Source: Alphaproteobacteria bacterium (GTDB lineage Bacteria > Pseudomonadota > Alphaproteobacteria > RF32 > CAG-239). Taken from it: DNA of 40,355 nucleotides. The translations under genes were made by a program, and so were the position numbers. The number at the start of each line of letters is the position of its first letter. Positions within the stretch are counted from its first letter, which is position 1. Positions 20,482-32,786 of this stretch are shown one piece after another. The stretch lies in NCBI GenBank assembly GCA_045126755.1, contig JBGVOY010000025.1, forward strand, positions 1 to 40,355. The letters run 5' to 3'. Under the pieces are notes generated by a model that saw only the letters and a program-made list of their open reading frames with translations, was not told the DNA's origin and did no database searches.

Positions 20482-20685
20482 CTTTTCCCTTTTGAACGTT
20501 ACTTGTTAATCGATTTTTTTATTTTCATACATTTTGTTAAAATTATCAAGACTGTTTATAATATTCTTCCTGCCAAATAGACCAAAAACTATTATAATAT
20601 TGTTTGATTATTAATTAGTATGTATGTCCTCCCACCTTGGCAAGTAAGACCAAAGGACTAACGCCAAAATTAACTTATATTTATT

Positions 20686-21459
20686 ATGCAAACAATTTTC
20701 GACAGAGCCGGTTTTGAGTATGCTCTCATCGCAAACTGCGCAATCACAGACGGTTTAACCAGTTATGTAACATTCAAGGAAGATGGAACTCCTGTTGTCA
20801 TCCGTAACGGACAGCCTGTTCTCTCAAGCTTTTTCACCGACGGCAACGGACGTTGGGGCAAATTGATTAACTCTACAGACCCAAAGAAAGTTGAAAAGGT
20901 CATGAAGAAGGCAGAGAATCACGTTATCGCGTTACATAACGGTGAACTTGTTTGCCAGCTTGTACCTCTTACAGGTATTGTTTGGCACGATGACATGGGA
21001 AATAAGTTCTACCTCATTTCTCGTTTCGAAAGAGAAGAGTTGGAGGCTGATAACCTTGCCTATGTAACAGCTGAAAGCGAAGGCACTTACGAAACCATAA
21101 AGTACATCGCATACAACGGAACAGAATTTATCGATGTTCCTCGTTATCTCTATAATGAGAAAAACAAGAGATTCACCGCTGGCGCTAACTTCAAGGCTAT
21201 GGCTTACGCCGAAATGCGCAGACGTGGTAATGCCTCAATCGCTGTGAAGAACGGCGCACGTAAGGTTTATGCCCGTCTGAGTGAGAAAGGCGAATATATC
21301 ATGGCACACACTCAGGGCGCTTATGAGGCTCAGAAGCTTGGCGATGAAGGTAGCTACTTTGTGGAATACTGCGACAGCACCAGTGGAGGTTGGAATGTTC
21401 CAATGGACGAGTTCCCAAAAAGATATCAGATTTATTCGCCTGTCCTCTTATGCCAATAA
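20686..21459 (+). CDS. G+C-rich foreign-looking ORF of unknown function whose last ~13 codons read out-of-frame gpt-derived sequence (chimeric 3' end)
   Basis: 257-aa ORF. Two 60-nt lines counted by hand give 26/60 (20761-20820) and 30/60 (21241-21300) G+C, against 9-20/60 in typical lines elsewhere. From 21419 onward the DNA is homologous to gpt. Confidence 0.6.
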   Translation: MQTIFDRAGFEYALIANCAITDGLTSYVTFKEDGTPVVIRNGQPVLSSFFTDGNGRWGKLINSTDPKKVEKVMKKAENHVIALHNGELVCQLVPLTGIVWHDDMGNKFYLISRFEREELEADNLAYVTAESEGTYETIKYIAYNGTEFIDVPRYLYNEKNKRFTAGANFKAMAYAEMRRRGNASIAVKNGARKVYARLSEKGEYIMAHTQGAYEAQKLGDEGSYFVEYCDSTSGGWNVPMDEFPKRYQIYSPVLLCQ

Positions 21460-30114: not shown

Positions 30115-31308
30115 CTAGTCTATCGGATTATTGTCTGCATAGTTATCAAAATAGCCTTTTATCAAAATAACCGGAGTTCCTTTATCGCCCGAACCGCTGG
30201 TTAAATCGCACAGAGAACCCAATAAATCGGTAATTTTACGCGGAGTTGTGCCGATTGAATAAAAACCGTCTGCGGATTTCTTTTCCGATATTGCTTTTTT
30301 GACTGCTTCTGTAGGGTTATCTACGTTATTATCAGCCACCGCCTTTATTTTAATTTCATTTGGCATACCTTCCAAACCTTTAGTATACCCCGGAGACACG
30401 ACAGGATCGGCAAATTCCCATATTTTTGTGTTAGGACATTTAAACCCGCCATCGCCATAAATCATTACCTCTATATGTTTACCGGTCTTATCCTTCAACA
30501 TCTTTTGCAAATTGAGGCAAAATCTTTCACAATCCCTCGGAAATAATTTTAACCGGTTACTGTCAGAATAGTTTGAACCTAATAAACCAAACTCACTCCA
30601 TCCTCTGTTTTTATCGGGTAAGTTACATATTTCATCTAATGTAAACGCAGTAGCTCCTGCCTTAATTAAAATTTGCTTTTGACGATGACGAACGTGTATA
30701 CTTGAAACAATTACCTGATGAGTAAATTTTAATATGTCTTTAGGATTATTTAGCAATACAACCTCTATATTGGGCGCAATATCTTCATACATTCGAATAT
30801 GGTCTGAACCTGTTATTGGATGATGAAAAACACCAAATTTTTCACGAAAATCTTGCTTTGTAATAATATCCGTATACGGATTTATGTCCGATTCAAATAA
30901 TTTATCCTCATCCATTATGGCATTTCCCACTTCATCTGCAGGATATGAAAGGCATACATACACTTTACCGCTTACACCTTTGGCTATTCCTTCCAAAATT
31001 TTTGCAAATCTGTTTCTTGATAAGATAGGAAATGCAACCGCTACATCGCCTTGCGGAAATTTTTTTGCAACATCATTTGCAATATCTTCTATGGTAACAA
31101 AATTGCCCTGAGCTCTGGCTAAAAAAGATTCCGTTATACCGATAATATCACGATTATTTAATTGTATAGGCTGATAATCGGAGTTTTTTGCTTCAAGCAA
31201 TGTATCAACAATAATGCTTGATATATCTGCTCCTTGAGTAATAATCGGCATTCTGATACCATAAGCCGATGTTCCGACATAACGAATATTAAAATTTTTT
31301 TTATTCAT
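30115..31308 (-). CDS. CofE-like (F420-0:gamma-glutamyl ligase superfamily) protein with an extra internal region
   Basis: It has PIITQGADIS...DIIGITESFLARAQG, GLLGSNYSD, IYGDGGFKCP and LTSGSGDKGTPVILIKGY, collinear with CofE motifs as I recall them. AGGAG lies 7 nt upstream of the ATG at 31308. The track TTG start at 31338 is rejected. Confidence 0.65.
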   Translation of the reverse strand: MNKKNFNIRYVGTSAYGIRMPIITQGADISSIIVDTLLEAKNSDYQPIQLNNRDIIGITESFLARAQGNFVTIEDIANDVAKKFPQGDVAVAFPILSRNRFAKILEGIAKGVSGKVYVCLSYPADEVGNAIMDEDKLFESDINPYTDIITKQDFREKFGVFHHPITGSDHIRMYEDIAPNIEVVLLNNPKDILKFTHQVIVSSIHVRHRQKQILIKAGATAFTLDEICNLPDKNRGWSEFGLLGSNYSDSNRLKLFPRDCERFCLNLQKMLKDKTGKHIEVMIYGDGGFKCPNTKIWEFADPVVSPGYTKGLEGMPNEIKIKAVADNNVDNPTEAVKKAISEKKSADGFYSIGTTPRKITDLLGSLCDLTSGSGDKGTPVILIKGYFDNYADNNPID

Positions 31309-31402
31309 ATTTTTTCTCCTTGACAGTAGGTTAATCAACTTTGGTTTGTCTCGACTGTCCCTACAAGACCCAAACCGATAGAGAAGCTTTTTTTAACTTC
31401 TT

Positions 31403-31936
31403 CTAAAATGTTTCGTTTTCATAAAAATTTTTAATAATTAAATCAATATTTTCAGGATGAACAAGCTCTTTCCATCTGATATCTTTAAGCACAATCATAT
31501 CACGAACCATATTGCCTGACAGAAAAGGAAAATCTTGTGTTGTTCTTGAACAAAGGCCAACATTTTTAACATCTTTTGCAAAGAAAGCATATTCATTTAT
31601 GTCTCCGACATACATTATGTCCGGAGCAGTTCTGTCAGGAAGTTCTTTTTTAATTGTATTAAGCACATGTTCATTCCATGGTAAATTAACGCTGTCTTTG
31701 ACACCGATAATTCGTAAATTTGCGTATGCCTTGTTGTTTTTCCATACATTTTGCACCATTTTTTTGCGAACAAAATATGGTAGCGGATTTTTCTCGGTTC
31801 CGCTTTCTTGTGCAGATCCGATAACAACCGTTCCATACTCGCATTCTTCCATCATTGTCGTAACAAGCCTGTTATGACCGATATGAAAAGGCTGACAACG
31901 TATGATACAAAACCCATGCTTATACTTAAAACTCAT
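31403..31936 (-). CDS. nadM: Archaeal/NadM-type nicotinamide-nucleotide adenylyltransferase
   Basis: It has IIRCQPFHIGH (GRxQPFHxGH), VIGSAQES, NPLPYFVRKKM and SGNMVRDM...WKELVHPE, collinear with the M. jannaschii NMNAT pattern. Confidence 0.8.
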   Translation of the reverse strand: MSFKYKHGFCIIRCQPFHIGHNRLVTTMMEECEYGTVVIGSAQESGTEKNPLPYFVRKKMVQNVWKNNKAYANLRIIGVKDSVNLPWNEHVLNTIKKELPDRTAPDIMYVGDINEYAFFAKDVKNVGLCSRTTQDFPFLSGNMVRDMIVLKDIRWKELVHPENIDLIIKNFYENETF

Positions 31937-32050
31937 AAAAAAAACCTTTCATTCTGAAAGGCCAACACATCAACACGGATAAATCCGTTATAAGATGACC
32001 GGCCAAGTCTGTTGTTCCCACCCATTGCCCTCGAGTGCCGGAACACATCA
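31937..32050 (-). promoter_or_regulatory. Structured 5' leader with aptamer-like hairpin, competing antiterminator and intrinsic terminator that also masks the SD (candidate riboswitch, class unassigned)
   Basis: Read on the minus strand. P1 is CCGGC (32041-32037) with GCCGG (32003-31999), extended by GATG (32049-32046) with CATC (31997-31994), and encloses a G-rich 33-nt core ACTCGAGGGCAATGGGTGGGAACAACAGACTTG. A second hairpin is ACGGA-TTTA-TCCGT (31988-31975). The terminator is CCTTTC-AGAAT-GAAAGG plus T8 (31961-31937), ending at the ATG. The 9-nt repeat TGATGTGTT occurs at 32050-32042 and at 31972-31964. Confidence 0.5.
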
Positions 32051-32078
32051 AACGTATCACTTGCAAAATAATTGTCAA
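32051..32078 (-). promoter_or_regulatory. Putative sigma-70 promoter of the nadM operon
   Basis: On the minus strand: TTGACA (32078-32073), 16-nt spacer, TGaTACGTT (-10 at 32056-32051). Confidence 0.55.
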
Positions 32079-32126
32079 GTATTTTTTAACAAAGGACTAT
32101 TTTTTTATTGGCAAGCGGTTTTTTAT

Positions 32127-32786
32127 CTATCCCTCAACAATAGCTACACCGGCGCTTGTGCCTAAGCTTGTTGCTCCTGCTTTTATCATTTCAATAGCAG
32201 TATTCTTATCTCTGATACCGCCCGAAGCCTTTACCTTAACATTAAATGGCGAAACCGTGTCGGCCATTAGCTTAACATCTTCAACCTTTGCCCCTACCCC
32301 GTTCTTTACAAAACCGGTAGATGTTTTAACAAAGTCTGCTTTTGCTTCAACGCAAATTTCACAAGCCTTTTTAATTTCTTCTTTAGTTAATAAATCTGTT
32401 TCTAAGATAACTTTTAGCACATTATTGGGGCAAGCTTCTTTAACCGTTTTAATATCTTCTTTTACAAAATCCCAATTATTATCCTTAATTGCCGAAACAT
32501 TTATCACCATATCTACTTCATCTGCGCCGTCTTCAATAGCTGACTTTGCTTCATAAGCTTTAACTTTGCTGATATTTGCTCCTAAAGGAAAACCTATAAC
32601 CGTTACAATTTTAACATCTGTTTCTTTTAAGAACTCTTTTGCTTGCTTAACGTAAGCCGGATTGACGCACACTCCTCTAAATCCGTATTTTTTAGCTTCA
32701 GAATAGAGTTTTTCAAACTCTTGTGCGGTTGCATTTTGTTTTAAGAGTGTATGTTCAACATATTTAGCTAAATTTTGCATATTCAT
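32127..32786 (-). CDS. deoC: Deoxyribose-phosphate aldolase
   Basis: It has VCVNPAYV, VIGFPLGAN, DEVDMVIN, DFVKTSTGF and VKASGGIR, collinear with B. subtilis Dra/DeoC. Confidence 0.9.
   Translation of the reverse strand: MNMQNLAKYVEHTLLKQNATAQEFEKLYSEAKKYGFRGVCVNPAYVKQAKEFLKETDVKIVTVIGFPLGANISKVKAYEAKSAIEDGADEVDMVINVSAIKDNNWDFVKEDIKTVKEACPNNVLKVILETDLLTKEEIKKACEICVEAKADFVKTSTGFVKNGVGAKVEDVKLMADTVSPFNVKVKASGGIRDKNTAIEMIKAGATSLGTSAGVAIVEG

Follow-up and report, generated by a model that had tools for sequence, protein, structure and literature searches.

The window analysed here is a stretch of 40,355 nucleotides (nt) from an alphaproteobacterium of the CAG-239 lineage (contig JBGVOY010000025.1), and the element under study is an mRNA leader at positions 32050-31937 of its minus strand. 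The leader heads a five-gene minus-strand operon, and a second copy of the same RNA motif precedes the second gene. Comparison with other genomes shows the leader to be a genuine regulatory RNA, conserved and built as a hairpin plus a pseudoknot. It probably belongs to an uncatalogued class of cis-regulatory RNAs, would act as a ligand-sensing OFF riboswitch, and has nicotinamide adenine dinucleotide (NAD+) or a close intermediate as its likeliest ligand. The leader is more interesting than the structural model in a preliminary description of the same DNA had suggested. The operon, whose gene order is conserved among the closest homologous loci (group 1, see below), comprises the following genes:

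31936-31403, minus strand: gene 1, NadM-like nicotinamide mononucleotide (NMN)/nicotinic acid mononucleotide (NaMN) adenylyltransferase of 177 amino acids (aa), with an HxGH motif (Pfam PF01467)
31308-30115, minus strand: CofE/F420-ligase-like protein (Pfam)
30103-29552, minus strand: PnuC (Pfam; NCBIfam nicotinamide riboside transporter equivalog, 59.9 bits against a cutoff of 42.45 bits)
29555-29040, minus strand: nucleoside 2-deoxyribosyltransferase/nucleotide N-glycosidase-like (NDT-like) protein (Pfam)
29050-28229, minus strand: small radical S-adenosylmethionine (SAM) protein (Pfam)

The NadM-like protein scores below the cutoffs of the NCBIfam models for NMN adenylyltransferases (NMNATs), and among solved structures it matches archaeal NMNATs and NadM-Nudix best. 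For the NDT-like protein the nearest match is a cytidine monophosphate N-glycosidase. Scans of the operon proteins against PADLOC and PHROGs gave no link to defence systems. Upstream of the leader lies deoC, an adjacency that is not conserved. The leader itself carries the following features, some observed directly and others predicted, given in the direction of transcription:

32078-32051, minus strand: sigma-70-like promoter with -35 box TTGACA (32078-32073), 16-nt spacer, TG at 32059-32058 and -10 box TACGTT (32056-32051)
32044-32014, minus strand: hairpin of the first motif copy (copy A), whose first helix (P1) pairs GUUCC (32044-32040) with GGAAC (32018-32014)
32039-32038, minus strand: bulge GG of copy A
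32037-32033 with 32023-32019, minus strand: second helix (P2) of copy A, CACUC with GGGUG, as in the minimum free energy (MFE) fold of the window sequence
32032-32024, minus strand: loop of copy A, GAGGGCAAU
32013-32007, minus strand: linker of copy A, AACAGAC
32006-32001, minus strand: putative pseudoknot 3' strand of copy A, UUGGCC, pairing with G32029-G32028-C32027 of the loop
32026-32025 with 32006-32005, minus strand: putative extra pseudoknot pairs of A32026/A32025 with U32005/U32006 around a bulged or mismatched G32004
32004-31960, minus strand: antiterminator, in which GGCCGGUCAUC (32004-31994) pairs with GAUGUGUUGGCC (31971-31960) in the unconstrained MFE fold
31988-31975, minus strand: variable hairpin ACGGA-UUUA-UCCGU, enclosed by the antiterminator
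31963-31943, minus strand: intrinsic terminator GGCCUUUC-AGAAU-GAAAGGUU with a 9-pair stem, its core CCUUUC-AGAAU-GAAAGG lying at 31961-31945
31950-31945, minus strand: Shine-Dalgarno (SD) sequence GAAAGG of the nadM-like gene, within the terminator 3' arm; the start codon AUG is at 31936-31934
31944-31937, minus strand: U8 directly before the AUG

Read from 32078, the minus strand runs TTGACA-N16-TACGTT-UGAUGU-GUUCCGGCACUCGAGGGCAAUGGGUGGGAAC-AACAGAC-UUGGCCGGUCAUC-UUAUA and continues as ACGGAUUUAUCCGU-GUU-GAUGUGUUGGCCUUUCAGAAUGAAAGGUUUUUUUU-AUG. A regex check of the window recovered every string quoted in the preliminary description at its position, namely the promoter, the two strands of a proposed closing helix (GAUGUGUUCCGGC at 32049-32037 and GCCGGUCAUC at 32003-31994), the G-rich core (32032-32007), the small hairpin, the terminator and a 9-nt repeat, UGAUGUGUU (32050-32042 and 31972-31964). 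The single-sequence MFE fold consists of the local hairpin GUUCC-GG-CACUC...GGGUG-GGAAC, a long antiterminator helix and a truncated terminator. Folded by itself, the window leader is only slightly better than its shuffles (z = -1.65), and the case therefore rests on comparison with other genomes.

Relatives were collected through the NadM-like protein by a profile scan of one genome per species, which gave 158 relatives, and 80 loci were kept from among these. They comprise orthologues of the NadM-like protein at 67-78% identity (group 1, L001-L035) and paralogues at about 45-49% identity (group 2, L037-L080), and several genomes carry both. The protein has 62 close clusters, the labelled ones being metagenome-assembled genomes (MAGs) of Alphaproteobacteria. 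The organisms are nearly all uncultured gut Alphaproteobacteria (from humans, ruminants, rabbits and chickens), and one is a Candidatus Scatocola. The motif was found upstream of the nadM-like gene in 80 of 80 genome loci, in the window and in those metagenome contigs that reach far enough upstream; in total there are about 170 copies in about 86 loci. The usual layout is two copies per operon, one at the 5' end of the mRNA (copy A) and one before gene 2 (copy B). In group 2 the operon is nadM-like-pncA-pncB-nadE or a shorter version of it, with the motif before nadM and before pncA; PncB of this group scores 471.7 bits against a cutoff of 469, and NadE 216.6 bits on TIGR00552. A metagenome scan with the conserved copy-B hairpin yielded six contigs; each carries the operon already known and adds no further gene context. 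The more distant NadM-like homologues P0055 and P0062 lack the motif.

Five contigs with the operon (L002, L009, L025, L036 and L076) are labelled as MAGs of Lachnospiraceae, Gastranaerophilales/-aceae, Lactobacillales or Lactobacillaceae. The nadM-like genes on these contigs share 46-76% identity with the window gene, as in the alphaproteobacterial loci. These contigs are likely mis-binned, the alternative being horizontal transfer.

Across these loci the aptamer follows one order: P1 of 5 base pairs (bp), a 2-nt bulge, P2 of 5-7 bp, a loop, an A-rich linker and the pseudoknot 3' strand. The second base of the bulge is an invariant G. The loop has the consensus (N)R-A-G-G-G followed by 4-5 variable bases, and its 3' half is the pseudoknot 5' strand. 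The linker is 7-16 nt long and ends in AAC or AACC, or in GAC in group-1 copy A, including copy A of the window. In a per-group MAFFT alignment of 37 group-2 sequences, compensatory changes were observed in 10 of the 12 hairpin pairs, and 97.8% of all structure cells were paired, against 37-49% in slid controls. With 102 distinct sequences from several subtypes, covariation was seen in 11 of the 12 pairs and 98.4% of cells were paired (slid controls, 44-50%); this alignment is model-based and leans towards the structure, and the per-group MAFFT outcome agrees with it. An all-subtype MAFFT alignment (A2, A7) was discarded: it misaligned the two groups with each other in P2 and the pseudoknot, and per-group alignments, model-based alignments and our own parsing were therefore used.

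A covariance model (R2), built without the window leader and without the group-1 copy-B subtype, matched the window leader at 32048-31993 with 26.6 bits (E = 8e-5 for the whole window), which is its sole significant match within the 40-kb window. A weak match at 20679-20717 on the plus strand (13 bits, E about 0.3) consists of an AAC...GAGCCGG tail with no hairpin and was judged to be due to chance. In about 620 kb of locus flanks and in the rest of the window, the covariance model found no further copies of the motif. Among viral contigs, the copy-B pattern gave 0 matches; a looser loop/pseudoknot pattern picked out 106 stretches, of which 80 (716 kb) were scanned, and none matched the covariance model. 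This viral DNA, having been chosen for its loop and pseudoknot strings, serves as a negative control.

The position of the hairpin relative to the promoter is likewise shared. Of 60 distinct regions upstream of copy A, 50 have a sigma-70-like -10 box that stops 6-7 nt short of the first P1 base, and the homologous copy-A promoters have a TTGACA-like -35 box with a spacing of 16-18 nt to the -10 box. The window follows the same geometry (TTGACA-16-TACGTT-6 nt-G32044). Transcription is thus predicted to start at or beside G32044, which would put the aptamer at the very 5' end of the mRNA.

The preliminary description had placed the aptamer elsewhere. It proposed a long-range closing helix (32049-32037 with 32003-31994) around the G-rich core, and three mutually exclusive folds comprising this helix, the antiterminator and the terminator. 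The required complementarity is present in the window, and the inner part of the helix is pairable in 80% of homologue cells. Against it, the outer GAUG/CAUC pairs are formed in only 45.6% of cells among 68 homologous leaders, and only one of the five inner pairs (CCGGC/GCCGG) shows a two-sided change, in 3 of the 68 sequences. Overall pairing reaches 67%, compared with 98% for the local hairpin, which uses the same 5' nucleotides. The closing helix is absent even from the single-sequence MFE fold of the window. Moreover, the GAUG strand (32049-32046) lies between the -10 box, from which it is 2-5 nt away, and the predicted start, and the promoter geometry in the 50 of 60 regions makes it very probable that this strand is not transcribed. 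The preliminary description had itself named a mapped start downstream of its helix as counting against the idea, and the start predicted here points the same way. The 9-nt repeat, present at both window sites, is not conserved in its upstream copy across homologous leaders. Of the three folds, the antiterminator and the terminator are conserved and predicted to exclude each other; the closing helix is contradicted by the covariation, which favours the local hairpin at 32044-32014 and a pseudoknot from its loop to the 3' side, and we consider this older model very improbable.

Part of the complementarity behind the closing helix was noted separately. The end of P1 and the bulge form CCGG (32041-32038), which is self-complementary to CCGG at 32002-31999, across the pseudoknot 3' strand and its flank. 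In copy-A leaders this CCGG:CCGG pairing is possible in 80% of cells and shows no covariation. It may reflect an alternative pairing in the ligand-free state, a tertiary contact made by the invariant bulge G, or simply sequence conservation.

The pseudoknot is seen most clearly in copy B, an element absent from the preliminary description. It lies in the intergenic region between the nadM-like and cofE-like genes, and was seen in 36 of the 36 group-1 loci inspected:

31376-31322, minus strand: copy B, with P1 pairing GGUUU (31376-31372) and AAACC (31347-31343), and bulge GG (31371-31370)
31369-31364 with 31353-31348, minus strand: P2 of copy B, GUCUUG with CGAGAC
31363-31354, minus strand: loop of copy B, UAGGGACAGU; the linker contains UUAACCU
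31359-31354 with 31327-31322, minus strand: pseudoknot of copy B, a perfect 6-bp duplex of GACAGU with ACUGUC
31321-31316, minus strand: SD sequence AAGGAG of the cofE-like gene, abutting the pseudoknot 3' strand of copy B, an arrangement that recurs in all copy-B instances
31308-31306, minus strand: likely true start codon AUG of the cofE-like gene, from the SD sequence and conserved spacing

Model R2 gives window copy B only 12.6 bits; in most group-2 loci it also matched the intergenic region 3' of the nadM-like gene. The pseudoknot takes the form of at least six distinct complementary duplexes: GGCUUAU:AUAAGCC in most group-2 B copies, GGCCUA:UAGGCC in L041, GACAGU:ACUGUC in the window and most group-1 B copies, GGCAGU:ACUGCC in L023, L032, L033 and L035, GGCC:GGCC in L062 and L080, and GACU:AGUC in the A copy of L036. 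In the B copies the two strands match each other perfectly while their sequences vary from lineage to lineage, and the pseudoknot is therefore backed by multiple independent compensatory changes. A Watson-Crick complement of at least 6 bp between loop and tail was found in 47 of 117 unique instances, as against 0.5% of shuffled tails. Copy-A pseudoknots are shorter, GGCUU(A):(U)GAGCC in group 2 and GGC:GCC plus interrupted A-U pairs in group 1, and the GCC of the 3' strand is invariant across all copy-A leaders. For copy A of the window, the pseudoknot is proposed by homology to the covarying copies and from this invariance.

Two minor features adjoin copy B. The mechanically called open reading frame of the cofE-like gene begins within the aptamer linker, at TTG 31338; the SD sequence and conserved spacing favour the AUG at 31308-31306 (MNKKNFNIRY...). 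A stem-loop at 31402-31381 on the minus strand comes immediately after the nadM-like stop codon and stops 2-4 nt short of copy B. It is found at the same position in most group-1 loci with structure kept and sequence variable (MFE -4 to -13 kcal/mol, no U tract). When it was considered as an anti-SD element for gene 2, its complementarity to the SD sequence was not consistently above that of shuffles.

Downstream of copy A, the terminator with the SD sequence in its 3' arm and ending at the AUG, as the preliminary description had it, was the only terminator-like site found in a 2-kb scan. Its 9-pair stem (31963-31943) and U8 are what is expected of an intrinsic terminator, and both are conserved in the homologues. 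The succession of stem, U7-8 and AUG is kept in all copy-A leaders, and the terminator 3' arm is also the SD sequence in these leaders (GAGAGG, GAAAGG or AAGGAG). Since the arm is the SD sequence and the U tract and AUG follow, a single hairpin would block both elongation and initiation. Both the terminator/SD hairpin and the antiterminator are found again in 79 unique homologous leaders. The RNAalifold consensus of 25 group-1 leaders comprises the hairpin, the antiterminator (with a few compensatory changes) and a truncated terminator.

The alternative folds share their strands. The pseudoknot 3' strand of copy A, UUGGCC, has bases in common with the 5' strand of the antiterminator, GGCCGGUCAUC, and the GGCC of GAUGUGUUGGCC doubles as the terminator foot (31963-31943). 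Blocking local pairing of the pseudoknot 3' strand led to a predicted full terminator in 75 of the 79 unique copy-A leaders. In 46 of the 79, the unconstrained MFE fold holds the antiterminator without the full terminator, and the same block restores the terminator; in the window, it raises the number of paired stem bases from 5 to 9. The copy-A folds are accordingly modelled as mutually exclusive. The OFF-switch layout of the earlier account is retained in the form of the conserved antiterminator (32004-31994/31971-31960), which in the folding model competes with the terminator/SD hairpin; the switching element in this model is sequestration of the GGCC strand by the pseudoknot, rather than formation of the closing helix.

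In the mechanism proposed, which conservation and fold prediction support, the copy-A antiterminator would form when ligand is lacking and, because it ties up the GGCC at the terminator foot, would permit read-through with the SD sequence free. Bound ligand would stabilise the copy-A pseudoknot and prevent the antiterminator. The terminator containing the SD sequence could then form, and transcription and translation of the nadM-like and later genes would be switched off. Copy B has no terminator, and 0-2 nt separate the 3' strand of its pseudoknot from the SD sequence of the next gene; here the pseudoknot would probably occlude the ribosome-binding region and add translational repression. One aptamer is thus found with two expression platforms, a terminator in copy A and an adjacent SD sequence in copy B.

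The features by which riboswitches are generally recognised are found here, namely conserved structure, covarying helices and conserved unpaired nucleotides in a 5' untranslated or intergenic region and, on prediction, expression-platform folds that overlap the aptamer. The hairpin-pseudoknot RNA is a strong candidate for a new riboswitch class, and the leader RNA is proposed to bind its ligand directly. A different possibility is a protein-dependent attenuator, in which the hairpin-pseudoknot is bound by an RNA-binding regulator, such as the NadM-like protein itself (autogenous control) or a PyrR-like factor. Autogenous control predicts that the motif always accompanies the nadM-like gene, as it does in the sample, and the copy-B pseudoknots are long enough to form with no ligand. 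However, the co-occurrence is partly forced by the way in which the loci were retrieved, and no RNA-binding domain was detected in the operon proteins. The invariant unpaired purines of the junction, the covarying helices, the two platforms and the location at the 5' end of the mRNA are hallmarks of a small-molecule aptamer. Control by a protein is thus regarded as improbable.

The position of the motif outside the known classes, as the preliminary description had supposed, was borne out by cmscan. No family of Rfam 15 matched the whole window at the gathering score. At E<=10, searches of 31850-32150, 31280-31420 and L043:3780-4660 gave only chance matches (small nucleolar RNA, CRISPR repeat, small RNAs). 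Rfam 15 presumably includes a pnuC model. Both established classes of NAD+ riboswitch are rare and narrowly distributed, and each recognises half of the NAD+ molecule. Only these two have been reported (PMC10702441, PMC7749635). The literature searched, with subscription journals outside the search, yielded no third NAD+ class and no candidate near pncA, pncB or nadM. Large anonymous catalogues of structured RNAs from the gut could hold the motif unnamed.

The NAD+-II class (pnuC motif) was reported only in Streptococcus, with translational control only (Panchapakesan et al. 2021, PMC7749635). It consists of P1, a large internal loop (J1) and P1a, with an invariant 3-bp pseudoknot of UCC (J1) with GGA (SD) and a variable terminal loop (PMC9841397). 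The motif described here resembles it in the link to NAD salvage, the single small domain, the short pseudoknot, the A-rich 3' tail with a conserved C, the SD sequence at or next to the pseudoknot and the OFF logic presumed for both. It differs in having a 2-nt bulge as its internal feature and a covarying pseudoknot of 3-7 bp whose strand lies in the terminal loop, and in that copy A controls an intrinsic terminator. In the NAD+-I class (nadA motif), known from Acidobacteria, two bulged-stem domains stand in tandem upstream of nadA (Malkowski et al. 2019, PMC6859854; PMC7749635). The likely ligand family, feedback on NAD supply, rarity and narrow phylogeny are shared with it. Here, by contrast, there is one hairpin-pseudoknot per aptamer, separate copies stand before salvage genes, and the carriers are gut Alphaproteobacteria; nadA was absent from all loci examined.

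It might be supposed that the leader is a divergent member of one of these two classes. A pnuC gene is present in the window operon, where it is third (it is usually the third or fourth operon gene, and copy B lies just upstream of it in L002 and L004). In NAD+-II, too, the pseudoknot is short and has the SD sequence at it, and the A-rich 3' linker carries an essential C (PMC9841397, PMC10085692). Nevertheless, Rfam gave no match even at E<=10 on short stretches, and inspection by eye showed no sequence similarity to the published NAD+-II RNA of 55 nt. The NAD+-II pseudoknot arises from a large internal loop, whereas here its strand lies in a conserved terminal loop and covaries freely, and NAD+-I consists of tandem bulged stems with no pseudoknot. 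Membership in either class is therefore hardly to be expected.

H-type pseudoknot riboswitches (SAM-II, SAM-V, preQ1-II, SAM/SAH and guanidine-III) share the topology in which a hairpin loop pairs with a 3' strand that is part of the expression platform or touches it, and stabilisation of the pseudoknot by the ligand is presumed in both cases. They differ from the present motif, which has a 12-bp bulged stem, a 7-16-nt linker with AAC (GAC in group-1 copy A) and another gene set, and which shows no sequence or profile similarity to them (Rfam negative). Among proteins, NrtR, NiaR and NadR are DNA-binding repressors of nadM/nadD, pncA, pncB, nadE and pnuC when the NAD pool is sufficient. Their regulon is the same in kind; the control described here sits in the mRNA leader.

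The preference for an NAD-related ligand comes from gene context. The group-2 operon nadM-like-pncA-pncB-nadE is a complete Preiss-Handler salvage route to NAD+, and the presence of the same motif on this operon suggests NAD+ or a close precursor. The group-1 operon of the window contributes the NMNAT paralogue and PnuC. For genes of salvage and uptake, OFF control would suit a sensor of the end product, NAD+, or of a late intermediate. A single ligand is likely, since the four subtypes largely agree in their conserved unpaired nucleotides, namely the bulge G, the GG of the loop and the AAC of the linker (GAC in group-1 copy A). We think it rather probable that the ligand is a nicotinamide or nicotinate nucleotide, and within the pathway NAD+ or a close intermediate (NMN, NaMN, nicotinic acid adenine dinucleotide (NaAD) or nicotinamide riboside) is most likely. 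The hint of NAD in the preliminary description agrees with this gene context; the AACAACA resemblance to NAD+-I on which it drew is not conserved in the homologues.

The same new class might instead sense another compound, such as adenosine tri-, di- or monophosphate (ATP/ADP/AMP), ADP-ribose, phosphoribosyl pyrophosphate (PRPP), 5-aminoimidazole-4-carboxamide ribonucleotide (AICAR/ZMP) or a product of the cofE-like, NDT-like, radical-SAM, hisG or purC-like genes. The NadM, NadE, PncB, HisG and PurC-like enzymes use ATP, and PncB and HisG use PRPP. Copy B directly precedes hisG in L018 and L036, where purC-like and formamidase-like genes are present, together with hisA and hisIE in L018. The group-1 operon holds enzymes with no assigned role, and NAD+-I riboswitches were reported not to discriminate against ATP (PMC10702441). 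On the other side, the group-2 operon is Preiss-Handler salvage and nothing else, and the unpaired nucleotides shared across four subtypes argue for one ligand in both operon types. An OFF switch responding to ATP or PRPP would also be illogical for enzymes that consume these substrates. Such a ligand is rather unlikely. We give similarly limited weight to the view that the ligand is a metabolite for which no riboswitch is known, be it NaMN/NaAD, ADP-ribose or the product of the co-regulated genes; a candidate of the last kind would be a carboxamide-azole or other NAD-like dinucleotide made by the second NadM paralogue.

Several points weigh against an OFF riboswitch for NAD+ or a close intermediate. 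The evidence is computational throughout. All loci were reached through the NadM-like protein, and the gene association was sampled there only. In copy A of the window the pseudoknot amounts to three contiguous Watson-Crick pairs (GGC:GCC) plus interrupted A-U pairs and, by itself, is not above chance. With 6-7 bp, the pseudoknots of copy B may already be stable when no ligand is bound, and folding leaves the sign of copy-B regulation undecided. The B copies directly upstream of hisG in L018 and L036 are not obviously explained by NAD+, and they keep ligands such as adenine nucleotides, PRPP, ADP-ribose, ZMP or a product not yet recognised under consideration. Finally, the cofE-like, NDT-like and radical-SAM genes have no assigned function.

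NAD+ is among the most abundant and ancient cofactors. If it, or a close precursor, is indeed the ligand of the motif, this would be a third unrelated NAD+ aptamer, and its roughly 170 natural variants, together with the covarying pseudoknot and the two types of expression platform, would make a well-constrained system for RNA recognition of NAD+ and its precursors, as well as a new sensor scaffold. It would also reveal feedback control of a whole salvage pathway (nadM-pncA-pncB-nadE, pnuC) in uncultured gut Alphaproteobacteria. Membership in the regulon makes the function of the uncharacterised cofE-like, nucleotide-glycosidase-like, radical-SAM and, in some genomes, hisG/purC-like genes experimentally approachable. 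Should the ligand prove to be one with no known riboswitch, the group-1 operon of the window would encode an undescribed cofactor or salvage pathway, with the ligand as its handle.

Some further operon arrangements were observed. In L018 (4554-8521) and L036 (4549-8511), hisG is followed by a divergent purC-like gene and an acetamidase/formamidase-like gene, with hisA and hisIE also in L018, and such hisG-type operons may mark an undescribed pathway. L036 has three motif copies in one operon, before nadM, cofE-like and hisG. In L086 (35-7816) a group-1 operon (nadM-cofE-DUF-pnuC-NDT-rSAM) follows immediately on the last genes of a group-2 operon (pncB-nadE), so that the two operon types are physically linked there. 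Most group-1 operons contain, between the cofE-like gene and pnuC, a conserved gene of about 130-175 aa (L001:5827-6345 and orthologues). This gene, missing from the window operon, has no significant family match; its product shows a weak resemblance to DUF5662 and a His-rich, HD-like motif.

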